Shown here: piece after piece, positions 2,747 through 50,538 of the stretch | Position numbering within the stretch: the stretch's first letter is position 1 | How the letters are laid out: every line of letters starts with the position of its first letter | From: an uncultured Myxococcales bacterium | GTDB lineage: Bacteria; Myxococcota; UBA4151 | Reading direction: 5' to 3' | Length of the DNA stretch: 64,000 nucleotides | Assembly: GCA_964013405.1 (NCBI GenBank) | Contig: CAXGWI010000001.1 | Span: 50,402 to 114,401, forward strand | Program-made: the position numbers and the translations under genes | Notes under the pieces: generated by a model | The model's input: the letters and a program-made list of their open reading frames with translations, nothing else | The model's database searches: none | Told to the model about the DNA's origin: nothing

Positions 2747-3397
2747 CTAGGGCAAAAGTGACGGCGCTGCGAGACCCGCGCGCCGATGCTTATCCGATAA
2801 TGCCTCGATCTCCTCGGGTGGCAACCGGGTTGGTCCGCCCAAAGGAACCGACCGCAGCGCGATCGAAGCCAGGTGCTCAAGAAGTTCCATCCGAGCCAGT
2901 GCCATGGTGAGATCAAGGCCCCAGGCGAGCGGACCATGACCCATTAGGAGGGCTGCATTGGCTGCGCGAGCAGCATCGTGGACAGCCTGGCTCATGCCCT
3001 CTGCGCCCGGTCGATGATAAGGAACGTGGGCGATCTTCGGCCCGAGACTCACGATGGCCTCCGGCATAAAATCGATCGCCAGTTCACGACCACTCACAGC
3101 GAAAGCCGTCGATGAAGGCGCATGACAATGGATCACCGCCCCCATCCCGGGTCGAGCTTGAAACACGGCCCGATGCAACTGCCATTCACTAAACACGCGA
3201 TGCCGCCCCGAGAGTACCTTCCCGTCGATATCGATCACCAGCAGATCGGCCGAGCCGATGTCCCCTTTGCGGAAAGCGGTCGGCGTGACCAGAAATCGAT
3301 TGCCTGGGAGGCGCATGCTGATGTTGCCGTCATGATTGGCAACAAAGCCTTTTTGGTCGAGCCATTGGCAGGCCCTCAGCAACTCCTCAGCGCTCAC
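2747..3397 (-). CDS. class II aldolase/adducin-family protein (fuculose-/ribulose-phosphate aldolase-like) with a C-terminal extension
   Basis: A 216-aa protein. The motifs GFVANHDGNISMR, VIHCHAPSSTAF and MGHGPLAWG are typical of the class II aldolase fold and its His metal ligands. Its ATG overlaps the stop of the upstream BMC-P gene (ATGA). Confidence 0.85.
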   Translation of the reverse strand: MSAEELLRACQWLDQKGFVANHDGNISMRLPGNRFLVTPTAFRKGDIGSADLLVIDIDGKVLSGRHRVFSEWQLHRAVFQARPGMGAVIHCHAPSSTAFAVSGRELAIDFMPEAIVSLGPKIAHVPYHRPGAEGMSQAVHDAARAANAALLMGHGPLAWGLDLTMALARMELLEHLASIALRSVPLGGPTRLPPEEIEALSDKHRRAGLAAPSLLP

Positions 3398-3645
3398 GCG
3401 GTCGTCACCTCGTCGACGATCCCGATGATCAATGAGCGAACAGGGGGCTGCCCCCCCAGGATCTGCCGGACCCCGTTGCCCTCCCGCATCACGAGAACTC
3501 GTTCGCCCGGCGCCGCACCGACGCGATCAACGGCGATCAAGTCTTCGTCGCCATGCTCAGGACGAACCATTTTGATGGGTAAGCCATCGTAGCCAGGATG
3601 GTGCTGATCAGCGGTCACACTGCCGAGGACCTTGGCGATGATCAT
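3394..3645 (-). CDS. bacterial microcompartment vertex protein BMC-P (EutN/CcmL/PduN family), copy 2
   Basis: An internal Met start gives MIIAKVLGSVTADQHHPGYDGLPIKMVRPE…RVLVMREGNGVR…LIIGIVDEV (83 aa). This is a typical Pfam PF03319-like pentamer protein. The ATGA overlap at 3642-3645 with the upstream paralog was verified in the sequence (tcat on the plus strand). Confidence 0.8.
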   Translation of the reverse strand: MIIAKVLGSVTADQHHPGYDGLPIKMVRPEHGDEDLIAVDRVGAAPGERVLVMREGNGVRQILGGQPPVRSLIIGIVDEVTTA

Positions 3646-3917
3646 CCCTCCACCTCCCGGTGTGCATCGTCCACAATACCGATGACGGCCAGATCCACCG
3701 GCACGAAAGTCGGTCGACAACCAAGAGCAGCCTCTCTGCTGCCAACAAGGACCACTCTTTGTCCCAGCGAACTGCTCACCGTATCAACGGCCACCTCGAG
3801 CCCCCCCAAAGGCCTACCGTCATGATCTTCCCGCTGCACCAATCGGAACGTGAAGCCATTCATGGAAGGGAGCTTCCTCGTCGCCACAACGGTCCCTTTG
3901 ATCACACCGAACTGCAT
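3642..3917 (-). CDS. bacterial microcompartment vertex protein BMC-P (EutN/CcmL/PduN family), copy 1
   Basis: MQFGVIKGTVVATRKLPSMNGFTFRLVQ…VVLVGSREAA…AVIGIVDD is the canonical EutN/CcmL N-terminus and length (91 aa). An AGGAG Shine-Dalgarno lies 8 nt upstream, inside the 3' end of the preceding gene. Confidence 0.85.
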   Translation of the reverse strand: MQFGVIKGTVVATRKLPSMNGFTFRLVQREDHDGRPLGGLEVAVDTVSSSLGQRVVLVGSREAALGCRPTFVPVDLAVIGIVDDAHREVEG

Positions 3918-5953: not shown

Positions 5954-7015
5954 TTGCTACTCGTCTGGACCCTAGCTCGGCAAATGGCCGCCAACGCATT
6001 ACTCAGCTTCGCCCTGCTGTTCGTCACCGTCCTGAGCAGTCAGTTGTTGCGTCTCGGTCCCCTCGTCCTCGCCGGCATGAGCGATCCGCTCGGCTTCCTC
6101 AGCGTCCTTCTCGACACCCTGCCGCGGATTCTGGCCATGGCCCTTCCCTTCTCTCTTCCTCTGGGCGCATTCCTCACCGTCGACCGCTTGGAGCGGCGTT
6201 CCTTGGGCGACGCCATTCGAGCCCTCGGCATGCCAGCGACCCGAGTCTGGCTGCGGGCCGGTTGGCTGACAGGTCTTGGCGGTGCACTCTTGATCATCCC
6301 CTTCGCCTGGCTCCTCGAAGCAGAAGCAGCCAAGGCTTTTCCTCGGCACGCCCTTACCCTGGCTCAGGAGTCCGTCATCGAACGTATTCAGCCGGGCCAA
6401 GTGGTGCCGATGACCGATGAGCTTTCCTTCTACGCTGGACCTCGAAACCAGCGAGGGGATTTCGACCATCTCACGGTCTTGTTTGAAGAGAACGTGCTCG
6501 CCGGTCGAGATGGGCGGCTGGAAGGATTAGGGACCCAGGCCCTTGGTCTCTACTTGGCCGAAGCCGAACTCTGGCAAAGTACCAATCAAGGCCCGGTCCG
6601 CTCCACGGCGCGAGAGGTCCATGTTCGGCTGCCCGTCAGTCGCAATATCATTCGAAACATGAGTTTCTTTGCCGATCGGGAACGCCTCTCCCTCGCCCAG
6701 TTGATTAAAAGTCCGAGTACGGACCGGGAGGGCCGACGGCGCCAACACCTCGGATGGACGCGGCTTTTGGCGCCCTTGTTCACCTTAATACTGCCCGTCT
6801 TTAGTATTGCCTGTGCCCTTCTCGCACCGCCAAGGGCCCGTATCCTCTGTGGTCTAGCTGCCACGGTCTTGGTGATCGGGGTGCACCTGGCTAGCGAGTC
6901 CTTAACCCTTGCAGGGTGGCCAGCCCCGCTGGTGGCGGGCTTGGCCCCCTTGATCGCCCTGATACCCATTCTTCTAGCGCTCCGTGCTGAAGACCGTCGA
7001 GGTGTCCAAGGATGA
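5954..7015 (+). CDS. LptF/LptG-family LPS export permease (YjgP/YjgQ)
   Basis: A 353-aa protein with an N-terminal TM bundle, a periplasmic beta-jellyroll-like middle region and C-terminal TM helices. It is paired with a paralog immediately downstream through an ATGA overlap at 7012-7015. Confidence 0.7.
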   Translation: MLLVWTLARQMAANALLSFALLFVTVLSSQLLRLGPLVLAGMSDPLGFLSVLLDTLPRILAMALPFSLPLGAFLTVDRLERRSLGDAIRALGMPATRVWLRAGWLTGLGGALLIIPFAWLLEAEAAKAFPRHALTLAQESVIERIQPGQVVPMTDELSFYAGPRNQRGDFDHLTVLFEENVLAGRDGRLEGLGTQALGLYLAEAELWQSTNQGPVRSTAREVHVRLPVSRNIIRNMSFFADRERLSLAQLIKSPSTDREGRRRQHLGWTRLLAPLFTLILPVFSIACALLAPPRARILCGLAATVLVIGVHLASESLTLAGWPAPLVAGLAPLIALIPILLALRAEDRRGVQG

Positions 7016-13175: not shown

Positions 13176-14444
13176 TTGGAGGCGCTCATGGAGTGGGACA
13201 GCAAACTCTTCTTGGTCACTCGGAACTTGGTGCATCGAACGGCTGCCCGCCTGGATATGGACCCAAACGCCGCCCACCGACTCCTGCAGCCGGATCGGGC
13301 GCTGATCGTCTCGGTGCCGGTCCGGCGAGACGATGGAACTGTCGAGACGTACACCGGTTACCGCGTCCAGCACAACGACACCCGGGGCCCCTTTAAAGGC
13401 GGGCTTCGCTACCACCCAGATGTCGATCTCGGTGAGGTGACTGCCCTGGCGACTTTGATGACCTTTAAGTGTGCTGTCGTTGGCGTCCCCCTCGGCGGCG
13501 CAAAAGGAGGAATCGCTTGTGACCCGAACAAATTCAGTCGGGCTGAATTGCAGCGACTGACAAGGCGGTTCACAACCGAGATCATCAACTTCATCGGACC
13601 CGATGTTGATATCCCTGCCCCGGATATGGGCACCAGTCCCCAGGTCATGGCTTGGATCATGGATACCTACAGTCAGATGAAGGGCCATACCTGCAATGGT
13701 GTGGTGACGGGCAAACCCATCGAATTGGGTGGGAGTCAGGGGCGACTTCAGGCGACCGGCCGCGGCCTGGTATACTGCGTCGTCGCCGCGGCAAAGCACT
13801 TGGGGATCGATCTGAAGGAATGCACGGCAAGTATTCAAGGCTACGGCAATGTGGGGCACTGGGCGGGCCGTGAGTTAGAGCGAAACGGCGTCAAGATTCT
13901 CGCACTGAGCGACATGACAGGGGCCATCTACAACCCCAACGGACTCGATCTCAAAGAGACACGAAAGTACGTCCTTAAGCACGGTGGTCTTGCAGGCTAT
14001 CCCAAGGCGGAGCCGATCGATCCCGATGAAATCCTCACCCTCAAAGCGGATATTGTCGTGCCGGCAGCCATCGGTAGTGTGATCGACGCTGAGGTCGCCA
14101 ACAAACTCCAGTGCAGAATTCTGGCCGAGGGGGCCAATGGCCCGGTGACGACAGAGGGCAACGAGGTCCTCCTCAAACGACAAGATGAGATTTTTGTGAT
14201 CCCCGACATTCTCGCCAATGCCGGTGGCGTCACGGTCAGCTACTTCGAATGGGTGCAGGGAACGCAAAACTTTTTCTGGAGCGCCAAAGAGGTCAATGAC
14301 CGACTACGGCAGATCATGCAGAAGGCCTTTAAGGAAATCCTGCAGACCCACTTAAATGAAGATATGGACATGCGTACGGCCTCGATGGCCGTCGGGATGA
14401 GAAAAGTCACCGATACGATGAAACTCCGAGGGCTCTTCCCCTAA
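13176..14444 (+). CDS. gdhA: NAD(P)-dependent glutamate dehydrogenase (Glu/Leu/Phe/Val dehydrogenase family)
   Basis: GdhA signatures are GGLRYHP, VPLGGAKGG and GYGNVG…. The protein is 422 aa. Confidence 0.9.
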   Translation: MEALMEWDSKLFLVTRNLVHRTAARLDMDPNAAHRLLQPDRALIVSVPVRRDDGTVETYTGYRVQHNDTRGPFKGGLRYHPDVDLGEVTALATLMTFKCAVVGVPLGGAKGGIACDPNKFSRAELQRLTRRFTTEIINFIGPDVDIPAPDMGTSPQVMAWIMDTYSQMKGHTCNGVVTGKPIELGGSQGRLQATGRGLVYCVVAAAKHLGIDLKECTASIQGYGNVGHWAGRELERNGVKILALSDMTGAIYNPNGLDLKETRKYVLKHGGLAGYPKAEPIDPDEILTLKADIVVPAAIGSVIDAEVANKLQCRILAEGANGPVTTEGNEVLLKRQDEIFVIPDILANAGGVTVSYFEWVQGTQNFFWSAKEVNDRLRQIMQKAFKEILQTHLNEDMDMRTASMAVGMRKVTDTMKLRGLFP

Positions 14445-15673
14445 GGCTTGATTTCTTTGCGGGCCGGCACAACCAATCCAATCGCCGCCCAAAGCAAGCC
14501 CCCTAATGGGAACCTCCATAAAGGACGAACACCCATGTTCGCGGCCAAAAAGTGACGGAATAATTGGGGGCTTCGACTCAATGCGCGAATGGCGAGGCGT
14601 CGTAAAAAGGGCCAGCGCGCCAAAATCAGCGCCGCCCTCAAAGTGGGCAACGTGCTGTGAAAGGTTTCGATGAGCCCTTGCCGTATGGGCTGAAGGGCCT
14701 GCTGGTCGAGTTCACCACAAGTGATGCGCTGGGGAAGCTCATCAGCGAGAAGCATGGCCTGATCAAAGCTCACTGAAAGTCCTTCGCCGGTGATCCCATC
14801 GCCGTAGCCGAGACTATCCCCAATCAAGAGGACCCGGTCTGGCCAAGGCCCAAGGGCTTGCCAAGCTAAGGGCCCCGTCCCTTGAAACCGTGAGTCGGAC
14901 TCCTTGCCATCCAATCGGCGAGCAAGGCCCGGAAACCGACTCATCAGGGCTTTGAATGGCTCCGGTGACTGAAGTTCCGCCGGCTCATTCGTTTGATCCC
15001 AAAGTAAAGCGATCTCTACACGCCCATCCCCCGATGGCGTGACATAAGCCTCCATCCCCTTCGACCACCAAACTTCCACATCATCGCTCCAACGCGAACA
15101 GCGGAAGTGCTGCCGGGCACCAAAACGCCGACGCTTAAAGGGTCGACCTGGTCGTAAGCTGAGTTGCTCCAGTAATCCTGTGTTTCGACCGGCGGCAAAC
15201 ACGCAGACTTCACCCTCATGGGCCCCTGCCCGGCTCACGACACGTACACCTTCAGCCTGAATCGTAATTGTTTTCACCCGGGCATGGTCGGTCAGTACAA
15301 CGCCGAGTTCACGCGCTCTCTCGTGCAGTGCGCGGCTAAGGGCCTGGCGGCGAACACCCATCCCGAGTCCGGCAGGGAATACCCCTCTTGCGGTCCGGCC
15401 ATCATCATCCCAGTAGCGAATCCCTTCGAAGGGCGAACAGTCCTCAGGGCCCAAATAGTCAGTGACCCCAAGAGATTCCAGACAGGCCCAGCCGGTGGGC
15501 ATGATGCCCTCGCCGCAAACCCGGTCACGGGGCCAGGTTTTTCCCTCTAAGACCTCGACCGTTAGCCCCTTAAGACGCAAGGCGATCGCTGCGGCCAAAC
15601 CAGCGGGCCCCCCTCCAATCACGAGCACCTGGATCGATGACCCCATGCTCAGGACGCTGCCCGTGGGAGCCAC
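14441..15673 (-). CDS. FAD-dependent oxidoreductase, probably a hydroxylase (geranylgeranyl-reductase-like family); last gene of the type III PKS cluster
   Basis: A Rossmann motif VLVIGGGPAGLAAA is present. The alternative start MGSS is at 15646. Position and family resemble the flavoprotein hydroxylase of srs/ftp-type clusters. Confidence 0.75.
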   Translation of the reverse strand: MAPTGSVLSMGSSIQVLVIGGGPAGLAAAIALRLKGLTVEVLEGKTWPRDRVCGEGIMPTGWACLESLGVTDYLGPEDCSPFEGIRYWDDDGRTARGVFPAGLGMGVRRQALSRALHERARELGVVLTDHARVKTITIQAEGVRVVSRAGAHEGEVCVFAAGRNTGLLEQLSLRPGRPFKRRRFGARQHFRCSRWSDDVEVWWSKGMEAYVTPSGDGRVEIALLWDQTNEPAELQSPEPFKALMSRFPGLARRLDGKESDSRFQGTGPLAWQALGPWPDRVLLIGDSLGYGDGITGEGLSVSFDQAMLLADELPQRITCGELDQQALQPIRQGLIETFHSTLPTLRAALILARWPFLRRLAIRALSRSPQLFRHFLAANMGVRPLWRFPLGGLLWAAIGLVVPARKEIKP

Positions 15674-17382
15674 CGTGCCATCCAGCCCTTGGCGAATTCC
15701 GTCGCAATACCCAATGCCGTCATCTTCTTTGGAGGCAGTAAGAGCCCCTGCAGTAACCGACGGCGAGCTTCACTGCGACGGATCTTCCCCGACGACGTCC
15801 GGGGCAAGGTACCGGGTGCCAATATCAGCACACCCGCTACCGTCAGTCCGGAATGCTCCTGAACGGCTTCTCGACAGATCTGAATGAGTCCTTCGTCCTC
15901 GCTATTGTGTGACTCGGCGAGCAAATAAAGTGCTTCAGTATCGCCGGTTTCGACGGGCAAAGAGACTGCTGCCCAACAGCCAGTCCGGAGCCCTTCCACC
16001 CCATCCAGGCCTTGTTCGATAACGCTGGGATCGTAATTCCGCCCCCGCAAGATAATCACGTCCTTCGCCCGCCCACACAAAAAGAGGTCACCCGCCAACA
16101 CAAAGCCACGATCCCCTGTATCGAGCCAGTCATCCTGCAAGACGGCAGTGGTCTCCTCAGGCTGATCCAAGTAGCCAGCCATCACGCCATCCCCCCGAAC
16201 CCAGACCTGGCCCACCTGAGCTTCGGGCACACATGCGCCGGAAGGGTCACGAATCTCGACCTCAGTCCCAGCAAGAGGACGCCCCAGTGAACTCAGCGGC
16301 AGCCCTTCCTCGGCCAACTGAGCCTGACCGTCTTCTTCCAGGCTGGCCGGATCCACATGAATGATTCGTCGCTCCACTTCGATCGGGGCGAAAGTCACAC
16401 CTAGCGTCGCTTCGGCCAATCCGTAAACGGGGGTCAGGGCGCTCGACTGGAAACCCACCGGGCCAAATCGAGCACAGAATCGGTCCAGGGTTTTTGGATG
16501 AACCGGCTCGGCACCACAAAGGGCCACCGTCCAAGAGCTCAAATCCAAGCCCTCTAAGTCTTCGTCGCCAATCCGCTCAGCACAGAGACCGAACGCAAAA
16601 TTCGGCGCCACCGAGATGGTCGCCCGAGACTCAGTCAGGGCTTCGAGCCAACCGACCGGACGGGCGATAAACCGCTCTGGATTGATTAAGGTCAGCGGCC
16701 CTTTTGCCATAATGGCGGTGAGCAGGCAGCCGATCAAACCCATATCATGATAGAGCGGCAACCAACTGACCCCAGAGTGGTTTGAGGGGTCGCCCGGAAA
16801 GGTTGACATGATGGCTTGGCAGTTTCGGATCATGTTGTTGTGGGTCAGTGCAACCGGCTTAGGGCGCCCCGTCGACCCTGAACTAAATTGAACTGCGGCA
16901 AGAACTTCAGGGCCCTCACTACACCGGTAAACCTCCTCGGATCTCCGGCACCAATCAACGGTTTGGACACCGTGGGGGACACCGGCGCGCTGACCCGGAA
17001 CACTCACCAATGGAAGCAAGCGGCGATCGGACAAGACGATCTGAACCCGAGCTTCCCGCATCATCTGCGCCGTCCGCTCCTTCCATTCGTCAATGCGTCC
17101 AAGACGAACTGGCGGGTACATAGCGCAGGGCACCGCACCGGCTAGAACAGCGCCGAAGAACCCGTGATAAAAGTCGGGCCCAGTGGGCAATACCAGGCCA
17201 ACTCGATCCCCAGGCTGAAGCCCTAAAGAGACCAGTGTTCCCGCCACGCGAGCAGCCTGAGTGGCTAGCTCGCCATAGGTGAACTTCTGGTGACGCCCGA
17301 GTCCCGACCAGAAGGTGACCCCGAGACCCTCGTGCTCAGCTGCTTTCAAAAACGCAGCACCAAGGGTGTGATCTATCGTCAT
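15649..17382 (-). CDS. fatty-acyl-AMP ligase (FAAL; AMP-dependent synthetase/ligase)
   Basis: The AMP-binding signature FSSGSTGRPKPV is present, with a FAAL-type insertion region and a C-terminal SSGKIRR. A GGGAGG Shine-Dalgarno lies upstream of the ATG at 17382. Confidence 0.85.
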   Translation of the reverse strand: MTIDHTLGAAFLKAAEHEGLGVTFWSGLGRHQKFTYGELATQAARVAGTLVSLGLQPGDRVGLVLPTGPDFYHGFFGAVLAGAVPCAMYPPVRLGRIDEWKERTAQMMREARVQIVLSDRRLLPLVSVPGQRAGVPHGVQTVDWCRRSEEVYRCSEGPEVLAAVQFSSGSTGRPKPVALTHNNMIRNCQAIMSTFPGDPSNHSGVSWLPLYHDMGLIGCLLTAIMAKGPLTLINPERFIARPVGWLEALTESRATISVAPNFAFGLCAERIGDEDLEGLDLSSWTVALCGAEPVHPKTLDRFCARFGPVGFQSSALTPVYGLAEATLGVTFAPIEVERRIIHVDPASLEEDGQAQLAEEGLPLSSLGRPLAGTEVEIRDPSGACVPEAQVGQVWVRGDGVMAGYLDQPEETTAVLQDDWLDTGDRGFVLAGDLFLCGRAKDVIILRGRNYDPSVIEQGLDGVEGLRTGCWAAVSLPVETGDTEALYLLAESHNSEDEGLIQICREAVQEHSGLTVAGVLILAPGTLPRTSSGKIRRSEARRRLLQGLLLPPKKMTALGIATEFAKGWMARWLPRAAS

Positions 17383-17656
17383 AGAGCCTCCCTCAGATTC
17401 AGGTCACCAAGGACGGGATCATCACTTTGCCCATCGACCGCAACAACTCTTGCAGGCTCCATTAAGCCAACCCACTCCGTATCCACAGAAGAAAGTAATC
17501 AATATGGTCGTTATTGTCACCAAAATTCGACCAAATCGAACACTTGTTCATTTGAGACCCAAAGAGCAACGAGCACGTCGGATGGACGACGACTGGCTGG
17601 GTTTCCGCAGGTCGCTCACCCACGTCCGCTCGCCCTAGAATGAGTGCTCATGCTTC
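17383..17656. promoter_or_regulatory. AT-rich roughly 275-bp intergenic island inside the PKS cluster; probable internal promoter or regulatory leader for the FAAL-oxidoreductase genes
   Basis: It is locally low in GC (…gaagaaagtaatcaatatggtcgttattgtcaccaaaattcgaccaaatcgaac…) in an otherwise roughly 65% GC context. It lies between the ACP stop and the FAAL start. Confidence 0.35.
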
Positions 17657-17938
17657 TCAGGCCAACGAGTCGAGGGCCTGGGCCACCAGTTCTGCGACTT
17701 CACGCAGCGTTTCAGGCGGCTGATCCGGTGGTTCGTTCAAGAAGACTTGGAAGTGATTTTCCACCTCAAGGGCGAAGTTGAGCAGGCCCATACTATCGAG
17801 ACCGAGATCAGCTTGGAGGCGTGTTGACGGTGCCCAGTCTCCTGGAAGTTCGCAGTGATCCCGCAGGATCATGACCAGGTCTGAATGGATTTCGGCGAGG
17901 CGCTCAGGGGATGAACCGCCCCCTGTTTTCAAAGGCAT
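17657..17938 (-). CDS. stand-alone acyl carrier protein
   Basis: The phosphopantetheine attachment motif DLGLDSMGLLNFALEVE sits about 45 aa after the Met of MPLKTGGG…. The track ORF begins earlier (18007), but that N-terminus would overlap the methyltransferase gene. Confidence 0.7.
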   Translation of the reverse strand: MPLKTGGGSSPERLAEIHSDLVMILRDHCELPGDWAPSTRLQADLGLDSMGLLNFALEVENHFQVFLNEPPDQPPETLREVAELVAQALDSLA

Positions 17939-18464
17939 CGAGATAGCCTCCTGACTGCTCAAGGGCAGCCTCTTCTCGCCCGATGCGATGCCGCAAAAGG
18001 AGCCCATTGGCTAGGCTGAATACGAGGGCTGTCATCCAAGCTCCGCCCAGTAATGGCAGGGCTAAAATCTCCAGTACCACGCCCAGATAGTTGGGGTGCC
18101 GAATCCACCGATAAAGCCCACCCACTTGGGGCGGTGCCTCGGGCAGGATCATGATCGTGACTGTCCACCGCGGCCCAAGGGTCGAAATGGCCTCCCAACG
18201 CAAAGCTTGGCCCACAAGGAGTGCGAAGGCGCTGCTATAGACGAGCCAAGATGGTAGTTCAGTGGCAAAGAACGTGGCCTCGATGACGGCAGCGACCAAC
18301 CACAGGCTATGCAAGGCCCGCATCCAGGGCATCTGCTCTGGTGCGACTTCATAGCCTCCAGAGGCCACGATTTGGGCCTGATGCGTTGCGCTCAGGCGTA
18401 GTTCGGACAATCGCTGTAATCCAACCAGGCCAAGCAGTGCGAGGTAAGCCAGAAGAGGTGACAT
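17904..18464 (-). CDS. isoprenylcysteine carboxyl methyltransferase (ICMT)-family membrane methyltransferase (SrsB/FtpB-like)
   Basis: The RHPNYLG motif is present in a polytopic membrane protein. Its start MSPLLAYL at 18464 shares 1 nt with the PKS stop (18464-18466). Confidence 0.8.
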   Translation of the reverse strand: MSPLLAYLALLGLVGLQRLSELRLSATHQAQIVASGGYEVAPEQMPWMRALHSLWLVAAVIEATFFATELPSWLVYSSAFALLVGQALRWEAISTLGPRWTVTIMILPEAPPQVGGLYRWIRHPNYLGVVLEILALPLLGGAWMTALVFSLANGLLLRHRIGREEAALEQSGGYLDAFENRGRFIP

Positions 18465-19528
18465 CAGCCCACGCGCTCCAAGAGATTCAGCTCGGCACAA
18501 AAAGCCGGTCCCATCGCCGCCATCAGCCCCCGTTGTCCCGGGGGTGGCAAGGCTTTCAGCAATTCATGAAGAACGAACAAAACAGAGGTCGAACTCATGT
18601 TCCCATAGGTGGCCAGACTATCCCAACTCGCCTGCAGGTCAGCCTGACTCAAGCCCAGAGCTTCCTGCATGGCACCAAGGACCTTGGGGCCCCCGGGATG
18701 GGCCACGTAGAAGTCTAAGGCATCTGCGCCAAGGTCAGCATCCCGAAGCAGACCTTCCACCGCAGAGGGAAGCTCCTCTTTCACAAGACTTGGAACCTCA
18801 GGGGATAAGACAACCTTAAAGCCACTATCGACAACATCCCAGCCCATGATCCGCTCGGTCTGCGGGAAGAAGACTGAGCGCGGATGCGACCAGGCCAGTG
18901 GTGCACTCGCCGCAAGCGGATGCTCATCACCAACCATCAGCACGGCCGCACAGCCGTCACCGAAGAGGCCACTGGCGATGATATTGGCCACACTCAGGTC
19001 TTCCCGCTGTAGCGTCAGCGAACAAAGTTCAACGGAGAGGAGAATGCCAGCCTCGCCGGGGTGTCCCCGCAGATAATCCCCCAGCCGGTTCACGCCAGCA
19101 CAGCCTGCGAGACAACCAAGGCCGAACAGGGGCACTCGTTTGGTCGCTGGCGAAAACTCCAGCCGATTCATCACCCGCGCCTCAAGACTCGGGACGGCGA
19201 TCCCCGTGACCGTGGTGCTGATCACGATCGAAATCTCGTCCGGTGCCAACCCGGCCCGGGCCAGCAGGTCCTGAATCGCCGCCTCTGCCATGTCTGTCGC
19301 CACTCGGATCCACGCATCGTTATGGGCGCCAAAGCCATCGAGCGACTCGTAGGCTTCGATGGGCAGCGCAAGATGGCGGCCGCCGACCAGAACATTTCGT
19401 TGAAACTGTTCGATCCGCCCCGGGTTGTAGTAGCGCTCGCCCCAACGCTGAAGGAGGGCAGCGATGAGTTCATCTTGGCTGTATTCATGGGGCGCTAAGG
19501 CCGTTGCCGTCGAATGAATCCGGACCAT
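18464..19528 (-). CDS. type III polyketide synthase (chalcone/stilbene synthase family; alkylresorcinol/alkylpyrone synthase-like)
   Basis: The catalytic Cys context is GCLAGCAGVNRL. Also present are HPGGPKVL and YGNMSSTSVLFVL (the His/Asn triad region). The protein is 354 aa. Confidence 0.9.
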   Translation of the reverse strand: MVRIHSTATALAPHEYSQDELIAALLQRWGERYYNPGRIEQFQRNVLVGGRHLALPIEAYESLDGFGAHNDAWIRVATDMAEAAIQDLLARAGLAPDEISIVISTTVTGIAVPSLEARVMNRLEFSPATKRVPLFGLGCLAGCAGVNRLGDYLRGHPGEAGILLSVELCSLTLQREDLSVANIIASGLFGDGCAAVLMVGDEHPLAASAPLAWSHPRSVFFPQTERIMGWDVVDSGFKVVLSPEVPSLVKEELPSAVEGLLRDADLGADALDFYVAHPGGPKVLGAMQEALGLSQADLQASWDSLATYGNMSSTSVLFVLHELLKALPPPGQRGLMAAMGPAFCAELNLLERVG

Positions 19529-19927
19529 TTATGTGACTCCCGTGCGTTGGATTAATCCGCTATCGATACGAAATCTCTTGAGCCACCGACCCTCGCAATC
19601 CGCCATCCGTCGACTGTCCTCAGGGGCCTCGTGGTCTTCACCAAGGAGGTGAAGCAGTCCGTGGACCAGGAGGATGACCATTTCATCGGTAAGGCTGTTG
19701 CCAAGCTCCTGGGCCTGTCTGCGTGCTGTCTCGACTGAAATCACCACATCGCCGAGACAAGGTGCGTTGCGGGGGACGGGCAGGTCGAATTGGGGAAAGC
19801 TGAGCACATCAGTTGCCTGGTCAAGACCGCGCCATTCGGCGTTCAGAACTCGGATCCCATCATCATCAGTGAGCACGATACTCACCTCCGTGTGGCCCTC
19901 AGTGACCCAATCGGTGCAAATCGTCGC
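19529..19927 (-). CDS. ybeY: rRNA maturation endoribonuclease YbeY; start uncertain
   Basis: The zinc motif HGLLHLLGEDH and the upstream VLSFPQ are present. The track ORF starts at 20095, but the first roughly 55 codons overlap pgpH. The stop at 19529 is 1 nt before the PKS ATG. Confidence 0.75.
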   Translation of the reverse strand, partial: ATICTDWVTEGHTEVSIVLTDDDGIRVLNAEWRGLDQATDVLSFPQFDLPVPRNAPCLGDVVISVETARRQAQELGNSLTDEMVILLVHGLLHLLGEDHEAPEDSRRMADCEGRWLKRFRIDSGLIQRTGVT

Positions 19928-22325
19928 TGCCACTCTCCTCAACCGGCGTGGGATCGATGGTAGGAGTCGGATCGGCGTCTGGCTTTGGGTGCTGAGTCGA
20001 ACTGTTGCTGTCACGGCGCTCCTTCGTTGCTGGCTCTTGGTAGCGCGGCCGATGATGGTAGATTCCAACCAAAACTGCGTGGAACGCATTCGCAATCTTG
20101 TGGAGGTCGCGCAGGGTCAGATCGCATTCGTCGAGTTGCCCTTCCGCGAAGATCTTATTGGTCATTTTCTGCACAAGACCTCGAAGGCGGTCCGGGTCAG
20201 GAATGTCGACGGTCTTGGCCGAAGCTTCGACCGCATCGGCAATCATGAGCAGGGCTGCTTCGGGGTATTGGGGCTTACGCCAATGATGGCTGTAATCCTC
20301 CACATCAACCCGCTCACCTTCGGGGGCTAGTTCCACAGCTTTCTTATAAAAGAAGCTGATGACCCGGGAGCCGTGGTGCATCTCGATCCCGTCGATGATC
20401 TCCTCGCCGAGACCATAACTTCGGGCCAATTCCTGGCCCTCCGAGACGTGCTTTTTAATGATGAGCACACTCATGCTTGGTTTGAGCTTATCGTGGGGGT
20501 TCTCACCCCTTTGATTCTCGCCAAAATACTCCGGGTAGAGCCCTTTGCCGATGTCATGGTAATAGGCCATGACCCGCGCCAATAAGGGATTCCTACCGAT
20601 CGCCTGGGCCCCGGCTTCAACCAGCGAAGCGACCATCATGGAGTGGTGATAGGAACCCGGTGCTCGCAGCGCGAGCTCCCGAAGTGCAGGGTGATCGAGG
20701 TTGGAGAGCTCGGCCAAGCGCAAATTGGTCATGTAGCCAAAGACCCATTCGATCACCGGCGTGATCATCGGAATTCCAACGGCGGCGAGTAACCCACCGA
20801 GGACATAGTTGATGCCCTCGAACCCCATTTCTTGGCTGACGGCCCCCCCCTCGATGAGTGTCGTCCCCAGGCTAATGCCCCAGGCCGCAATTCCAGCGAC
20901 CAGGCCTGCTCGAAGGAAATCGGTGCGTCGGCGAGCTCCGTCCATCAAGCTCGCGCCCACCAAAGAGCCCAACATCACGGGTAGCGTATCGCTGATTTCC
21001 CCGGTGGCAGCGATGGCGATCAAGGGCGACGAAACCACCACAAAAACTAAGGTCACCGTTCCATCGAGCACGAAGGCCACGAGGAGGGCCCCCGCAACCA
21101 CTGGCAACAGGGGTCTCAACAGTCCGGCATGGAGTTCTGGGCGCTGGGCAGCCACGGCATCGAGAACGCCGCTCAAAAGGGAAATCGCCGCCAATTGAAC
21201 AACGAGGGTGACAGCCATAAAGGCCAGATCTCGAGCATCGGGCCGATACCGGGCCATGTGCCGCAAGGCGAACCAATGAACGCAGGCGACGAGCAAAGCG
21301 ATGAGTAAACCGGCACCGAGGGCAACCAACCAAGCTGCTAAGGCGCCCTGCTGGTTAATCTGTTTGAACAACAGGACGTGGTCGGCGGTCACTTCTTGGC
21401 CCCGACGAACGAGCACTTCACCCCGAGCGACGTTTTGCACCACCACTGGGATCTGGTGTCGAGCTAAGCGCTGACGTTCGGCCGTCTCAGCGGCGTTGTA
21501 GGTCGCCGTTGGGACCACCAAATGTCCAAGCAGTTGGGCCAAACTGCGACCGATGCGATCGTCGATGCGCTCAAGGTTGGCGGCAACTCGCAACTCAGGC
21601 TCGCGACTGAGGACCACCTCGACAAGGCGCTTACGAAGTGTTTTCAGGTCATCGAGGGCCTCAAGGCTGGTGAATCGCTCTTGCCGTGGACCGCGCAGCG
21701 TTAGGCCACGCACAGCCCGAGACTGGGCCCGCTGGCGACTCTCCACGACAGGACGCTCGTAGACTGACTGCAAGACGTCACCGAGAACCTGGGCCACCTC
21801 AGTCCGATAGCCGAGGCGATCGAGGGCATCGAACTCCACCGGCATCCCCTGGATCTGAAGTCCCTTTGAGAACTCCAGTTGGGCTCGCTGGCGACGGTTG
21901 TTCAACTCGGCCAGCGCAAAGCTGTAATCGACTTCTCGGTCCCCGTCCCCTCCCCCATCGATCCGGTCTTGTAGGGCTCTTCTGGCTTCCGCGATGGCCT
22001 GCATCTCGACGGCCATCGCGGAGTAGGTCTCCCGGAGGACGCGAGTGACCCGATCCACGGCCACTCGAGCGTGATCGTAGACCACAGGAACAGTCTGAGC
22101 CGCCTCGTCCCGCCGCCGTTGGGTCTCAGCCTGGTCGGTCACTCGCGTGCTGCGGGCTGCACGAATATCTCGCAGGGCAACCTTTCCTGGCTCTGGTACA
22201 CGCACTTGGGCCGTCGTGAGATCCGGGCGCATCGCCAAGGTGCCCGCAACCATCAGAAGGAGGATGAGACAGGCGAGGAGGCTTCGGCTTGGCTGGCCGC
22301 CTCGTGATCGTAGCAGGGACAACAT
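19899..22325 (-). CDS. 7TM receptor with intracellular HD hydrolase domain (PgpH/YqfF-type, putative cyclic-di-AMP phosphodiesterase)
   Basis: An N-terminal extracytoplasmic region is followed by 7 TM helices and an HD domain (HHSMMVASL…YYHDIGK). The protein is 808 aa. Confidence 0.8.
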   Translation of the reverse strand: MLSLLRSRGGQPSRSLLACLILLLMVAGTLAMRPDLTTAQVRVPEPGKVALRDIRAARSTRVTDQAETQRRRDEAAQTVPVVYDHARVAVDRVTRVLRETYSAMAVEMQAIAEARRALQDRIDGGGDGDREVDYSFALAELNNRRQRAQLEFSKGLQIQGMPVEFDALDRLGYRTEVAQVLGDVLQSVYERPVVESRQRAQSRAVRGLTLRGPRQERFTSLEALDDLKTLRKRLVEVVLSREPELRVAANLERIDDRIGRSLAQLLGHLVVPTATYNAAETAERQRLARHQIPVVVQNVARGEVLVRRGQEVTADHVLLFKQINQQGALAAWLVALGAGLLIALLVACVHWFALRHMARYRPDARDLAFMAVTLVVQLAAISLLSGVLDAVAAQRPELHAGLLRPLLPVVAGALLVAFVLDGTVTLVFVVVSSPLIAIAATGEISDTLPVMLGSLVGASLMDGARRRTDFLRAGLVAGIAAWGISLGTTLIEGGAVSQEMGFEGINYVLGGLLAAVGIPMITPVIEWVFGYMTNLRLAELSNLDHPALRELALRAPGSYHHSMMVASLVEAGAQAIGRNPLLARVMAYYHDIGKGLYPEYFGENQRGENPHDKLKPSMSVLIIKKHVSEGQELARSYGLGEEIIDGIEMHHGSRVISFFYKKAVELAPEGERVDVEDYSHHWRKPQYPEAALLMIADAVEASAKTVDIPDPDRLRGLVQKMTNKIFAEGQLDECDLTLRDLHKIANAFHAVLVGIYHHRPRYQEPATKERRDSNSSTQHPKPDADPTPTIDPTPVEESGSDDLHRLGH

Positions 22326-35502: not shown

Positions 35503-38136
35503 CTATGCCGTCTCCGCTGGCTCACTGATCGGCACGCGGATCCATCCCAAATAGACCATGGCCGGAATTACCAACATGTCAGCGACCACGGCCATGATCA
35601 TGGTCATGGGCAGAATCAAACCCATGTATTTAAAGGTCAGGTAGGGACTTGTTAGCCAAATCCCAAATCCACAGACGAGAATGATGCTCGTCCGAACGAT
35701 CCCCAAACCCGTCTCGCACAGGCTCAAACGCACCGCTTCGTCCAAGTCCTTTCCGGCCTGACGCTCGTGGCGGTAGCGCACGAGAAAATGGATGGTGTCG
35801 TCCACTGCGATCCCCAGGGCCACCGAGACCAGAAAGAGGGCATCGATATCCACCATCAGCCCGAACAAGCCAACCACACCGATGCCTGAAATGACGGGCA
35901 GGATATTGGGCAACATCGAAGAAAGCCCAACGCGCACACTGCGAAACACAAAGGCCATGACGAGGGTGATGACCAAGGCAGCGAAGCCAAAGCCCTTCGC
36001 GAGTTGGGAAGACAGGGTTTCGATCAAATGAGAGAAGAGGGACTCCATCCCCGTAACCCCGGTTCGAAGGCCCCCTTCGGGCCTAGGAAAGAGCTCTTGG
36101 GCCGCCGCCTCGACTTCATCGACGATCTTCACCAAATTCGCGCTGCCAACGCTGGGCAGACGCAACTGGACCCGCACGTAGCGTCTGGACTCGTCGACCA
36201 AAAGGTTGAGCCCTTCCCCGCCCTCGCCAGCAAACAAAGCCAACTGGGAAGCCAACTGGGCTCGATTGGGCAAGGTCCCCTCGCCCCCCATCGCCGAGTG
36301 CGTTCGCTCAGCGATATCCACCAGGGAGATCACATCGAGAATGGGCTTCTTGCCCTCGTAGATATCGGGGCGCTGCAGGCCCCTTAGCTTGGATTCGAGG
36401 GCCTGAAGCCGAACAAGCACGGTGTTGGGTAGGGCCCCCGCAACGGGGTCGACAATCTCTGTGGATTCAGTGGCCCCATCGGCCGAACCAAAACCATCGT
36501 CGTCATCGAATCCGGCGATCTCCTCTTCCGTCGGCGTTTCCTGCTTCGTCGCTTCAGCGGGCCGTTGCTCGCGAATAAAGGCAGAGCGCTCCAACGCACC
36601 GCCCTCCTGCCCCGTATCGATGATGATTTCCGCAGACGCGCCCCCGGTCATCCGATCCCCGAACCACTTGGCAGCGACCTGAACAGGATGGCCATCATAG
36701 AACTTTGCATCGACGTTGGTATCGATCTTCAAGAGCATCAGGCCGATGATCGCGAGCACGGTAGACAGCCCACCCATCGCCACCACAAAGACCGGCCGCT
36801 CCTTGGCCACCAACCGGCACCGTTCCAAGGCTGCAGTCATCCACTTGCTCTCGCTCGGTGCGGCCCCTGGAACATTCAGGAGACTTAGGAGCGCAGGCCC
36901 CAACACAAAGGCGATCACAAAGGAGGCAGCCACCCCAATGCTCGCGATCACTGCCAGTTCTTTTGCGGTGCCCACCGGCAGAAAACGCAGGCTCGAAAAA
37001 CCGATCAAAGTCGTCAGGGTCGTCAGAAAACAAGCCATCCCCACCTCGTGAAAGGTGCGAATAATCGCTTCTTCTTTGTCACAGCGAAGGCGTTCTATTC
37101 GATACTGACCGACCAGATGAACGATATTCGCCGTCGCAAGAACGAGAATGATCATCGGTGCCATGGACGCGACAATGGACAGACCACCGTTGATCGTGCC
37201 GCCAAATCCAGCGCCCCAAAGGCTCGCTGGAAGCGCGGTCAAGAAGACCATCAACGTCGCTCGCCACTCTTTGAGCATGAAGCTCACAAGAATAAGAATG
37301 ATCACCAGGCTGGCAGCAAAATAAGGGCCCGCATGCCTTTCCGTCTCCAGCATCAGCGCCGTCAGGCTTGCGGGCATGCCTGTCTTGTAGAGACGCTCCA
37401 CATCAAAGCCGTTCGCCGCCACCAGATCGTAGAGGTCGGGAACAGCGAACATTCGGGCCGTATCGACGAGACTCGCTCGACCTTCATCGGTGCGTAAAAG
37501 AAGACGTCCATTGGGGAGCCGCTCGGCCGTCGCCAACATGGCGCTCTTGACACCGGGTCTTTTCATATCGGCTTTGGTGTCACCCACGAGACGGACGATC
37601 ACCGCGGTGCCCTTACCATCTTCCGTCAAGAGGCCGGGCACGTACATGCCATCAGCTCGGAGCGCTGCGACCGCCTCTACCCGCTCCGCATCGCTCTGCC
37701 CCTCGGGGAAATAAGGGCGAACCTCCATGGCCCCCGCTTCGTTCGAGCCAACACGCTGCAAGCCACCGAGTGAGGTCACCTCCATCACCATCGGGTGGGC
37801 CTCAAGAGCCTTCTCGAGGCGACGCAGCTTTTCAAGGAAGGCAGCAGTGAGGACTTCATCGTCCTCAATGCCGAGCAGCATCACATTGTCGGAGCCGAAA
37901 ATTTCCCGCGTATCGTAATAGTAATTCCCCCGCTCAGAGGACTCATCAATCATATAGCGGAGGGAGTTTCGGACCTCGACTTGCAGAAAGAGTGCGCCGG
38001 CGATGGCCGTCACGACCGCGATCAGAGCGATCGAAGACAAGCGAAAGCGAAGGACCAGTCGAACCCATGTATCCAGCCACTTAGCCAAAGCGACCTCCGA
38101 AGCGAGCGCCGTGTCTCTATCCAGTGGGGGCACTTC
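35503..38136 (-). CDS. RND-superfamily MMPL/HpnN-like transporter with two SSD/MMPL repeats
   Basis: Two 6-TM bundles are each preceded by a large periplasmic domain. The track start (38352) would overlap the divergent lipoprotein gene, so the MEVPPLDRD Met (38136) is preferred. Confidence 0.75.
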   Translation of the reverse strand, partial: EVPPLDRDTALASEVALAKWLDTWVRLVLRFRLSSIALIAVVTAIAGALFLQVEVRNSLRYMIDESSERGNYYYDTREIFGSDNVMLLGIEDDEVLTAAFLEKLRRLEKALEAHPMVMEVTSLGGLQRVGSNEAGAMEVRPYFPEGQSDAERVEAVAALRADGMYVPGLLTEDGKGTAVIVRLVGDTKADMKRPGVKSAMLATAERLPNGRLLLRTDEGRASLVDTARMFAVPDLYDLVAANGFDVERLYKTGMPASLTALMLETERHAGPYFAASLVIILILVSFMLKEWRATLMVFLTALPASLWGAGFGGTINGGLSIVASMAPMIILVLATANIVHLVGQYRIERLRCDKEEAIIRTFHEVGMACFLTTLTTLIGFSSLRFLPVGTAKELAVIASIGVAASFVIAFVLGPALLSLLNVPGAAPSESKWMTAALERCRLVAKERPVFVVAMGGLSTVLAIIGLMLLKIDTNVDAKFYDGHPVQVAAKWFGDRMTGGASAEIIIDTGQEGGALERSAFIREQRPAEATKQETPTEEEIAGFDDDDGFGSADGATESTEIVDPVAGALPNTVLVRLQALESKLRGLQRPDIYEGKKPILDVISLVDIAERTHSAMGGEGTLPNRAQLASQLALFAGEGGEGLNLLVDESRRYVRVQLRLPSVGSANLVKIVDEVEAAAQELFPRPEGGLRTGVTGMESLFSHLIETLSSQLAKGFGFAALVITLVMAFVFRSVRVGLSSMLPNILPVISGIGVVGLFGLMVDIDALFLVSVALGIAVDDTIHFLVRYRHERQAGKDLDEAVRLSLCETGLGIVRTSIILVCGFGIWLTSPYLTFKYMGLILPMTMIMAVVADMLVIPAMVYLGWIRVPISEPAETA

Positions 38137-38221
38137 CATCAAGCCGGTGGCGCCCCTCGACCCCAATACAAGCCGAGTGCGGCCCCATGACCACCGCAAC
38201 CAATTTAGGGTATGATGGGCC
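38137..38221. promoter_or_regulatory. short divergent promoter region between the MMPL transporter and the Cys-rich lipoprotein
   Basis: An 85-bp gap between divergent starts. It applies only if the MMPL start is at 38136. Confidence 0.25.
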
Positions 38222-49102: not shown

Positions 49103-50425
49103 TCACGGCCCTCCCGAGGCCCCCTCGCCCCGTGGCGGACTCGATCGGGCCAAAACCTGGGCGAGCAAAGCCTCCCGCCCCAGACCGGCAAGCCCTTCTG
49201 CCTTTAAGCGTCGATACAGGGTCGACCGGCTAACACCGAGGCTCTTCGCCGCCTGCGTTAGATTCCCATCGTGGGCCAGGATCGAGGGCAGCAATCCCTC
49301 CTGGTCCATGGTTTGGGTCAAACCGGAGCCAAAGCGCTCGACCAGACTGAGATGGCCTGGCGAAATCTCCTGACCTTCACACAGGATGGTTGCCCGTTGG
49401 AGACAGTTCTTCAGTTCCCGAACATTACCTGGCCAGGGGTACCGTTCGAGCATCTGACGGGCGGAACCATTCAGGAAATACCCCCCACCATCCCGGTTCA
49501 AAAAAGCCGCCACCAGGCCGGGGATATCCGAGCGGCGCTGTCGCAAGGGCGGAACCTCAAGGGGAAAGACCATCAAGCGATGATAAAGATCGAGGCGGAA
49601 GCGTCCCTCTTTCACCGCCCGCTCCAAATCACGGTGCGTTGCACACACCACCCGGGCAGAAACCGTTCGCTCCCGCACTTCGCCAAGGCGCGTGACCGTC
49701 CCGCACTCGAGGACGCGTAACAACTGGGCTTGAACTTCCAGGGGCATCTCCCCGACCTCATCGAGGAACAGCGTTCCATCACGGGCCGTCTCAAACGCAC
49801 CTGCTCGGTCCCGATCAGCACCGGTAAAAGCGCCCCGCACATGACCGAAGAGTTGGCTTCCCACCAACTGGGTATTCAACGCACCACAGTTCACATTCAC
49901 GAGTTGGCCAGCCCTTCCCGAAAACTCATGGATGGCCCGGGCAACCAGTTCCTTGCCTACCCCCGATTCGCCGCGAATCACCACCGGAACCTCGGTAGGT
50001 GCCACCCGGCGCACCAAGTCGGCGAGTTGTTCCATCACCGGGTGGCTGCCAACGACACCGGGCAAAGAAGAGGAAGAGGACATCCCCTCCGGCGGAAAGG
50101 CCTCAAACAACATCACCACACCGCCGAAACGCAATTCAGCCCGGGCCGGCAGTTGCGCTCGGTCGACCCGGGCACCAGCGACGAAGGTGCCGTTCTTCGA
50201 GCCCAGGTCAACCACCTCCCAGCCCTGGGCGACTTGGCGTAGCTCGGCATGCTTTCGCGACAACCCAACCCCTTGGGGACTGATATCGTTACTCCGATCC
50301 CGGCCGATGCGGAGACATCGGACGGAAAGTGGGCGTCGCAAGACACCTGCGCCACTCAAAAATACCCGCCCTCGAGCCAGGCACTCCCGGGCCATTGAAT
50401 CCGTTTGCCGTGTCGCCATGTTCAC
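49103..50425 (-). CDS. sigma-54-dependent transcriptional activator with an N-terminal FHA domain
   Basis: The FHA domain is …LRIGRDRSNDI…LSRKHAEL…GSKNGTFV. The AAA+ sigma54-interaction motifs GESGVGKE and GAFTGA are present. A C-terminal Fis-type HTH follows. Confidence 0.9.
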   Translation of the reverse strand: MNMATRQTDSMARECLARGRVFLSGAGVLRRPLSVRCLRIGRDRSNDISPQGVGLSRKHAELRQVAQGWEVVDLGSKNGTFVAGARVDRAQLPARAELRFGGVVMLFEAFPPEGMSSSSSLPGVVGSHPVMEQLADLVRRVAPTEVPVVIRGESGVGKELVARAIHEFSGRAGQLVNVNCGALNTQLVGSQLFGHVRGAFTGADRDRAGAFETARDGTLFLDEVGEMPLEVQAQLLRVLECGTVTRLGEVRERTVSARVVCATHRDLERAVKEGRFRLDLYHRLMVFPLEVPPLRQRRSDIPGLVAAFLNRDGGGYFLNGSARQMLERYPWPGNVRELKNCLQRATILCEGQEISPGHLSLVERFGSGLTQTMDQEGLLPSILAHDGNLTQAAKSLGVSRSTLYRRLKAEGLAGLGREALLAQVLARSSPPRGEGASGGP

Positions 50426-50538
50426 CTCCCAGGTCCGAACACGGTAACGCGACTCGCTGCCAATGTCAGCCCTTGGTGACGAGACTCTGGACCTTGGGAC
50501 CCGAGGTTGCTAGCGGAGCCTCGTTGCGAGGAGGACCG
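50426..50538. promoter_or_regulatory. divergent intergenic region between the sigma54 activator and bolA-grxD
   Basis: A 113-bp gap. Confidence 0.25.

Follow-up and report, generated by a model that had tools for sequence, protein, structure and literature searches.

An ftp-type cassette joining a fatty-acyl-AMP ligase to a type III polyketide synthase in an uncultured Myxococcales bacterium

Results

Gene content and layout of the cassette

The window, which is the whole stretch of DNA that was analysed, covers 64,000 nucleotides of contig CAXGWI010000001.1 (positions 50,402 to 114,401 of the forward strand; assembly GCA_964013405.1) from an uncultured Myxococcales bacterium, and the system in question is a five-gene cassette on its minus strand (14441-19528). 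The co-oriented genes encode, in this order, a type III polyketide synthase (PKS), an integral-membrane methyltransferase of the ICMT family, a stand-alone acyl carrier protein (ACP), a fatty-acyl-AMP ligase (FAAL) and a flavin adenine dinucleotide (FAD)-dependent oxidoreductase (Table 1). An initial annotation of the window had described them as a complete alkylresorcinol/alkylpyrone-type cluster, and the open reading frames (ORFs), together with Pfam and NCBIfam matches, confirm that the five genes are real and lie on the minus strand where that annotation had placed them. The same five genes recur in the same order on a single strand in a Myxococcota metagenome-assembled genome (MAG; locus L001), in Ca. 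Uabimicrobium (L002), in a Myxococcus locus (L087) and in about a dozen scanned genomes, and the arrangement is therefore far beyond chance.

Table 1. The cassette genes, the ACP/FAAL spacer and the flanking genes, in window coordinates.
Feature	Position	Strand	Length	Profile matches or composition
Type III PKS	18464-19528	-	354 aa	Pfam Chal_sti_synt_C/N and FAE1_CUT1_RppA, all above gathering
ICMT-family integral-membrane methyltransferase	17904-18464	-	186 aa	Pfam ICMT, 91 bits (cut-off 24)
Stand-alone ACP	17657-17938	-	93 aa	PP-binding, 21.5 bits (cut-off 20.8)
Non-coding spacer, ACP/FAAL	17383-17656	.	274 bp	52% GC
FAAL	15649-17382	-	577 aa	Pfam AMP-binding, 213 bits; NCBIfam PRK09192
FAD-dependent oxidoreductase	14441-15646	-	401 aa from ATG	Pfam DAO, FAD_binding_3 and related
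ybeY (endoribonuclease), upstream flank	19529-19933	-		Pfam YbeY, 118 bits
gdh (glutamate dehydrogenase), convergent downstream flank	13176-14444	+		Pfam ELFV_dehydrog

The TGA of the PKS gene and the ATG of the methyltransferase gene have one base in common, 18464, within TGATG, which bears out the 1-nt overlap reported earlier. The ACP gene starts inside the 3' end of the methyltransferase gene (35-nt overlap) and is preceded by an AGGAGG Shine-Dalgarno sequence, and the FAAL gene has a strong ribosome-binding site of its own (GGGAGG). Only 2 nt separate the FAAL stop from the start of the FAD gene; an alternative GTG start would extend the latter to 410 aa, reaching 15673. The GC content is 59-62% throughout the window. 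The GC fraction is 0.58 in the cluster and about 0.60 in the window, and at third codon positions it is 0.61-0.66 and 0.67-0.73, respectively. The composition gives only a weak signal of horizontal transfer.

The cassette is collinear with the myxobacterial ftp genes

The likeness to the myxobacterial ftp operon and to the actinomycete srsABC system that the initial annotation had drawn is upheld by both comparisons made here. The M. xanthus ftpABCDE operon is said to have been characterised biochemically, with roles assigned gene by gene to the Ftp proteins, by Hayashi and colleagues in 2011. The Myxococcus locus used here (L087) was reached through a search with a Corallococcus PKS, which led to the entry 'MULTISPECIES: type III polyketide synthase [Myxococcus]', and is not confirmed as strain DK1622. 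It encodes a PKS (360 aa), an ICMT-family protein (191 aa), an ACP (93 aa), a FAAL (592 aa) and a FAD enzyme (365 aa), matching the window in gene set, order and orientation. The window proteins match these at 54, 42, 38, 47 and 42% identity, respectively; the matches are collinear and cover most or all of each protein, with E values from 1e-160 to 7e-14 (BLASTP), the last being that of the ACP. The loci differ in their surroundings. The Myxococcus genes are preceded by HmuY-like and unknown genes and followed by a metallo-beta-lactamase-fold gene, in place of the ybeY and gdh genes of the window, and the 274-bp ACP/FAAL spacer of the window has no counterpart there.

For the srs/agq type, the comparison was made with a Streptomyces plasmid operon (L086) in place of SrsA-C themselves. 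This operon contains contiguous genes for a PKS, an ICMT-family methyltransferase and a 'FAD-dependent monooxygenase', which are 44, 41 and 40% identical to the window proteins, and also encodes a UbiA prenyltransferase and extra methyltransferases. S. griseus srsABC, mycobacterial and Streptomyces pkqABC and Actinoplanes agq possess the homologous three-enzyme core, in which the PKS and methyltransferase genes are adjacent and in the same order as in the window. In contrast to the window, these operons lack a FAAL and an ACP, and their starters are acyl-CoA or derived from fatty acid synthase (FAS). Because the ACP and FAAL genes sit between the methyltransferase and FAD genes, the window locus is filed as ftp-type and not as srs-type. 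The gene content, order and predicted roles proposed earlier stand.

Other systems have parts of this gene set. Cyanobacterial hidABC and the planctomycete MT-FDO-PKS operons (hierridin/alkylresorcinol) encode enzymes of all three core classes, and their PKSs have been shown to act as alkylresorcinol synthases (PMC10896814); their order is methyltransferase, oxidoreductase, PKS, and they have no FAAL or ACP. Ca. Uabimicrobium, itself of planctomycete lineage, has the five-gene ftp-type order. In the arsABCD system of Azotobacter vinelandii, type III PKSs fed with acyl-ACP make long-chain alkylresorcinols and pyrones for the cyst coat, and a cyclisation Trp is common to these enzymes and the window PKS (PMC6274091). 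The starter is delivered there by the dedicated type I FAS proteins ArsA/D rather than by a FAAL and a stand-alone ACP, and neither a methyltransferase nor a flavoenzyme is present. The cylindrocyclophane proteins CylA/CylB/CylI provide another case where a stand-alone FAAL and an ACP feed a resorcinol-forming type III PKS (PMC11837247), but there the ACP is separated from the type III PKS by a type I PKS module and the pathway ends in a dimeric paracyclophane, neither of which applies to the window.

Type III PKS, methyltransferase and carrier protein

The window PKS is 100% identical to the NCBI entry 'MAG: type III polyketide synthase [Myxococcales bacterium]', whose gene lies on a 120-kb contig. 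Its best match in the PDB is M. tuberculosis Pks11 (4jao; 279 bits, aligned over residues 9-350; phmmer), and CylI is the third-best PDB sequence match (243 bits). The alignment to Pks11 places the Cys-His-Asn triad, for which the initial annotation had asked, at Cys139 (GLGCLAG), His277 (AHPGGP) and Asn310 (YGNMSS), corresponding to C138/H277/N310 of Pks11; the Cys column is confirmed by a deposited C138S mutant entry (4jat). The assignment as a type III PKS holds with all three residues in place. In addition, Trp230 (in IMGWDV) aligns with W230 of Pks11, which is the position of ArsB Trp281. Exchange of ArsB Trp281 for Gly switches the product from resorcinol to pyrone, and the Trp is reported to be conserved in FtpA, SrsA and Pks10/11 (PMC5916927, PMC6274091). 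Since Trp230 occupies this position, the window PKS would be expected to favour aldol (resorcinol-type) over lactone cyclisation.

The second protein matches the ICMT structures 5vg9 and 4a2n, contains the C-terminal RHPxY and EE motifs (as IRHPNYLG and REEAAL) and has several hydrophobic segments. It occupies the second ftp gene position, and its Streptomyces counterpart is annotated as a member of the ICMT family. The ACP, at the third ftp position, carries Ser49 in LGLDSMGLL, the Myxococcus equivalent being LQLDSLGLT. Equivalents were called in L001, L002 and the two loci with the closest PKS relatives (L084 and L085, described below). A PP-binding score just above the cut-off, a retained Ser motif and a Myxococcus counterpart bear out the stand-alone ACP of the initial annotation.

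The ligase has the features of a FAAL

By all the sequence criteria available, the ligase is a FAAL. Its best match among NCBIfam models is the 'fatty acyl-AMP ligase' PRK09192 (424 bits, under its cut-off of 600), and the six highest-ranking distinct sequences in the PDB all represent FAALs or loading domains of the FAAL type, the first being the E. coli FAAL 3pbk (275 bits). The adenylation core motifs SSGSTGRPK, YGLAEA, TGD, GRAKD and SSGKIRR, the last with the A10 lysine, are intact. The window FAAL and three cassette orthologues were aligned with E. coli K-12 FadD, which served as the reference for a genuine acyl-CoA ligase (alignment A2). About 22 extra residues are present in all four cassette FAALs and absent from FadD; in the window enzyme, the stretch reads RRIIHVDPASLEEDGQAQLAEEGLPLSS (approximately residues 338-365). 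It aligns almost without gaps to EcFAAL 3pbk, with one 3-residue gap, and follows the YGLAEA motif, which we take to be the location of the FAAL-specific insertion. The presence of this insertion supports the identity as a FAAL. The initial annotation had proposed to tell a FAAL from a CoA ligase by an intact 'CoA-binding insertion'; the proposed distinction is decided in favour of the FAAL, and the wording is inverted, as the insertion is specific to FAALs and disfavours the use of CoA.

In EcFAAL, rejection of CoA has been attributed to W224, M231, F279 and the helix T252-R258 (PMC8460268). The corresponding residues of the window enzyme are W207, M214 and F262, and PERFIARP stands opposite TQDFAMRP in the helix region. 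These elements bear on an alternative in which the ligase would be a common fatty acyl-CoA ligase providing the acyl-CoA starters, while the small ORF would not be a functional carrier protein. The ACP score, barely above its threshold, would fit such a scheme, as would the second-best NCBIfam model of the ligase, which is labelled 'long-chain-fatty-acid--CoA ligase'. The insertion that FadD lacks, the conserved W/M/F residues and helix region that block the CoA pocket, the FAAL character of the closest structures, and an ACP that keeps its Ser motif and its position across phyla and is clearly related to that of Myxococcus make this alternative extremely unlikely.

A C-terminal tail of about 30 residues past the A10 motif (approximately residues 545-577; about 15649-15750) is common to the cassette FAALs and missing from E. 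coli FadD. K553, E562 and G566 are conserved in a three-sequence alignment (A1), and K553 alone once FadD is added.

Fold and motifs of the terminal flavoenzyme

The FAD enzyme was modelled with AlphaFold2 from a 64-sequence alignment (predicted local distance difference test score, pLDDT, 93.8; predicted template modelling score, pTM, 0.93). A Foldseek search of the PDB with this model returned a fold of the p-hydroxybenzoate hydroxylase (PHBH) type, with 3nix, the phenolic and pyrrole halogenases CtcP, PltM and PltA, squalene epoxidase and PHBH as top matches at TM-scores of 0.7-0.8; the top 50 matches include no geranylgeranyl reductase (GGR) structure. The sequence contains GGGPAG (residues 11-16) as its GxGxxG dinucleotide motif, an invariant CGEG and GDSLGYGDGITGEG. 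The segment at the site of the GD motif of group A flavoprotein monooxygenases (GDAxH/GxxxPxxGxG), IGDSLGYGDGITGEG, keeps the GD...TGEG pattern and has Gly at the family Ala and Asp-Ala sites (consensus GDAxGYVDAITGEG). The enzyme extends about 36 aa further at the C-terminus than that of Myxococcus. Because the ORF is intact and conserved, the gene is not a pseudogene.

Halogenases stand among the top Foldseek matches, and a halogenase was considered as a candidate. It was rejected because the WxWxIP motif is replaced by a family-conserved EAYVTP: the window enzyme has GMEAYVTPSG where CmlS has GWVWMIP.

Predicted pathway and product

Taken together, the locus is best read as an ftp-type cassette in which a FAAL primes a type III PKS for the synthesis of a long-chain alkyl phenolic lipid, a reading to which we assign a probability of roughly 0.78. 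The FAAL would adenylate a free long-chain fatty acid and load it onto the phosphopantetheine arm of the neighbouring ACP rather than onto CoA. The type III PKS would then extend the acyl-ACP starter with three malonyl-CoA units and close the ring by aldol cyclisation to give an alkylresorcylic acid or alkylresorcinol, with alkylpyrones as shunt or alternative products. The membrane-embedded ICMT-family enzyme would O-methylate the ring, possibly coupled to decarboxylation as reported for SrsB. Finally, the FAD enzyme would hydroxylate the ring, and oxidation of the resulting hydroquinone would leave a membrane-retained methoxy-alkyl-benzoquinone.

Work on related systems provides the analogies for the loading of the ACP, the use of the starter, the structure of the product and the hydroxylation. 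In Myxococcus, FtpA accepts the acyl-ACP made by the FAAL FtpD (PMC5707447), and the same logic would apply to the window. FtpA made alkylresorcylic acid in vitro (PMC6836626), and C18:0 is tabulated, from in vitro data, as a FAAL substrate in the alkylresorcylic acid pathway (PMC11837247). Decarboxylative methylation by SrsB is named in the title of a paper in the reference list of PMC5916927. In the S. griseus pathway, the type III PKS is followed by a methyltransferase and a hydroxylase of one operon (PMC9927152), and the products of SrsA and FtpA are oxidised to alkylquinones (PMC10896814).

Several observations weigh against this reading. The set had been called complete, and all five genes are there; a phosphopantetheinyl transferase is not among them, and the window ORFs scanned gave no suggestive Pfam match for one. 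All profile matches of the FAD enzyme fall below their cut-offs, and the best is to the GGR family (79.5 bits; NCBIfam), followed by assorted monooxygenases, halogenases and MenJ. The motif ADGxxSxx[R/K] is present in 61 of the 64 aligned members of the FAD-enzyme family, the only exceptions being the window enzyme and the sequences P0122 and P0124. This motif is presumably the DG motif of flavoprotein hydroxylases, which Eppink and colleagues reportedly implicated in 1997 in the binding of both FAD and NAD(P)H. At this site the window enzyme has FAAGRNTGLL (residues 150-159; 15170-15199), with AAGRKTLLL and ATGRRSPLV in its two closest relatives (73 and 58% identical, respectively), whereas the Myxococcus enzyme keeps the ADG motif (VAADGLASPLRR). 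The handling of the cofactor or reductant (FAD/NAD(P)H) may be altered by this change. The FAD oxidoreductase of a planctomycete cluster, whose kinship to the window enzyme is not established, caused no detectable modification in heterologous expression and was left without an assigned role (PMC10896814). The native products of this biosynthetic gene cluster (BGC) in M. xanthus are reported to be alkylpyrones (Hug 2019, as cited in PMC12766979).

The last point leads to a different view of the same cassette, in which lactonisation gives an alkyl-alpha-pyrone as the main product in vivo, the ICMT-family enzyme acts as the O-methyltransferase of this pyrone, as in the type III PKS/methyltransferase pair of Bacillus, and no quinone is made. 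We regard this as rather unlikely. The methyltransferase of the B. subtilis aliphatic polyketide pathway is reportedly ICMT-like. That pathway, which combines a type III PKS with a methyltransferase (as cited in PMC5916927), is in line with pyrone formation, and Pks11, the closest solved structure to the window PKS, bears the name of an alpha-pyrone synthase. The type III PKS BGC that is conserved in myxobacteria itself goes by the name 'alkylpyrone' cluster; it is similar to MIBiG BGC0001831 and belongs to the five BGCs with the broadest conservation across Myxococcota (PMC12766979). Against pyrones speak Trp230, which sits where a Trp-to-Gly exchange turns ArsB from resorcinol to pyrone formation, the in vitro product of FtpA, and the conserved flavoenzyme at the end of the cassette, which would be hard to account for. 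The initial annotation had hedged between resorcinol and pyrone, aptly so in view of the alkylpyrones reported from M. xanthus; its quinone end product is a prediction.

The FAD enzyme is the least certain component of the cassette and is presumed to be the ring hydroxylase by homology and position. Instead, it could be a side-chain reductase of the GGR/MenJ type, or altered or inactive, so that the pathway would stop at a methylated alkylresorcinol; we consider this distinctly improbable. The GGR family as the best profile and the match to MenJ point in this direction, as do the invariant CGEG, which we assume to resemble the Cys-Gly-Gly motif of GGR enzymes, and the AAG or ATG at the ADGxxSxxR site of the window enzyme and its two closest relatives. 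The names given to homologues vary among monooxygenase, flavin-dependent dehydrogenase and, in several JGI entries, 'menaquinone-9 beta-reductase'. On the other side, the GGR-family scores are far under the cut-off, the ORF is intact and confidently modelled, and the top 50 structural matches contain PHBH, squalene epoxidase and phenolic halogenases and no GGR. Moreover, the enzyme is 40% identical to the third gene product of the Streptomyces PKS-ICMT-FAD operon, which is annotated as a monooxygenase, and the genetics of srs and pkq assign this position to hydroxylation or oxidation (PMC9927152). For the hydroxylase proposed in the initial annotation, the kinship to the last genes of the Myxococcus and Streptomyces operons and the position give support by analogy, and the ADGxxSxxR site and the best profile do not.

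The cassette is the tail of a housekeeping gene array

The cassette forms the end of an eleven-gene co-directional array on the minus strand, which runs from 26643 to 14441 and comprises an unknown ORF, a MurA-like EPSP_synthase-family gene, murJ, mazG, a 7TM-HD (PgpH-like) gene, ybeY and the five cassette genes. Its junctions are overlaps or gaps of at most 12 nt, with the 274-bp spacer between the ACP and FAAL genes as the sole exception. The TAA of ybeY abuts the ATG of the PKS gene with no intergenic base (19528-19531). This layout implies that transcripts of the murA-murJ-mazG-pgpH-ybeY array read through into the cassette, which probably shares its transcript with ybeY and the housekeeping genes upstream of it. 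At the other end, the stop codons of the FAD gene (TAG) and of the convergent gdh gene (TAA) overlap (14441-14444), which marks the downstream boundary of the cassette.

These surroundings are found again in the closest relatives. In L085, ybeY lies upstream with a 5-nt gap to the PKS gene (1478-1496) and gdh lies downstream (6319-6322), and in L084 the upstream flank consists of mazG, a 7TM-HD gene and ybeY. The loci L001, L002 and that of Myxococcus have flanks other than ybeY and gdh. Of these two, L085 alone has the complete ACP/FAAL junction; the L084 contig ends just past it, where a short called gene overlaps the ACP gene. Because the ACP and FAAL genes overlap in L085 and leave no spacer, the 274-bp spacer looks specific to this genome.

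As the sole sizeable gap in the eleven-gene array, the spacer offers the one evident site for an internal promoter and may contain one, although none was detected. The region 14000-20500 gave no sigma-70-like site, and neither the spacer nor the DNA upstream of the PKS gene gave a sigma-54-like one, the window-wide sigma-54-like matches being below chance. Repeat copies of the spacer are absent from the window and the fetched loci, and no Rfam family, tRNAs included, reached its gathering threshold anywhere in the 64-kb window.

Two further candidates were dropped. A forced MAFFT alignment hinted that the start of the spacer could be a relic of an original FAAL 5' end, but BLAST found no significant similarity, and no such origin is claimed. 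Terminator-like matches are at chance level and inside genes and were disregarded.

Relatives of the cassette in other phyla

The closest PKS relatives are those of L084 (86% identity; from a marine metagenome run, PRJEB1788) and L085 (81%). Two other close relatives belong to a Myxococcota MAG (L001; 67%) and Ca. Uabimicrobium of the Planctomycetota (L002; 63%), both with the order PKS-ICMT-ACP-FAAL-FAD. One genome per GTDB species was scanned with an alignment of three cassette FAALs as the query, and the five window proteins were searched against all fetched loci (tblastn). All FAALs at least 44% identical to that of the window (L003-L020, L032 and L082) adjoin cassette genes on a single strand. 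About a dozen of these loci have all five genes in order, and the others are partial or cut by a contig end. In contrast, no PKS lies near the FAALs of at most 43% identity, except for a partial copy in Bdellovibrio (L022; 40%). The hosts found in the scan include Corallococcus, Archangium, Hyalangium and other Myxococcota, Thermoanaerobaculia and other Acidobacteriota, and Krumholzibacteriia, along with a Gemmatimonadales fragment and a Bdellovibrio MAG. This distribution shows that the cassette travels as a unit across phyla, namely Myxococcota, Acidobacteriota, Planctomycetota and Krumholzibacteriia, and occurs in partial form in MAGs of Bdellovibrio and Gemmatimonadales.

Individual loci deviate from the common layout. 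About 4 kb separates the ACP gene from the FAAL gene in an Acidobacteriota MAG (L019; 3829-8001). By tblastn, the Bdellovibrio MAG has matches to the PKS, ICMT and FAAL proteins and none to the FAD enzyme, Hyalangium versicolor has matches to the PKS and FAAL and none to the ICMT or FAD proteins, and in L011 the ICMT gene has no PKS match upstream.

Other features of the window

Outside the array, a class II aldolase gene adjoins a gene for an EutN/CcmL pentamer protein, a bacterial microcompartment vertex (2747-3720, minus strand), and the pair may belong to a microcompartment locus. A 949-aa MMPL/RND-type transporter with a sterol-sensing-domain match is encoded about 16 kb from the cassette (35503-38352, minus strand); lipid export is conceivable for it, and no link to the cluster was seen. 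A 719-aa export-gate protein of the FHIPEP family (FlhA/SctV type) is encoded in the same region (49103-54878, minus strand) as an FHA-domain sigma-54 activator, and the window ORFs scanned showed no further flagellar or type III secretion genes. Directly upstream of an ECF-type sigma factor gene stands a gene for an Rce1-like CAAX prenyl protease (57135-58568, plus strand). ICMT follows Rce1 in eukaryotic CAAX processing, and the presence of an Rce1-like protease and an ICMT-family methyltransferase in one window is probably a coincidence.

Discussion

The type of cluster described here is already known from Myxococcus ftp and its Streptomyces srs kin, the window PKS is already annotated at NCBI, and the understanding of the pathway is unchanged. 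The locus adds a well-supported example of a FAAL-primed type III PKS from an uncultured Myxococcota lineage, whose nearest relative is marine-metagenomic. Worth noting are the intact cassette across phyla, its junction with a housekeeping array, the motif loss in the flavoenzyme and the ACP/FAAL spacer, none of which will greatly surprise specialists.

Phenolic lipids serve as cyst-coat lipids in Azotobacter (PMC6274091) and have been linked to beta-lactam tolerance in S. griseus (PMC10896814), and alternative respiratory quinones have been described for mycobacteria and Streptomyces spores (among others, PMC9927152). Because no intergenic base separates the cassette from the murA-murJ-mazG-pgpH-ybeY array, one could imagine that it has been welded to the housekeeping genes, that it has ceased to be a free-standing secondary-metabolite cluster under conditional expression and that its product is a constitutive membrane component, either a PkQ-type quinone electron carrier or an envelope lipid, made with a flavoenzyme of changed reductant or chemistry; we hold this to be unlikely. 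The spread of the cassette across phyla forms the background for the role of its product, as an envelope lipid or an alternative respiratory quinone, and for the nature of the native product, be it a resorcinol or quinone or a pyrone.

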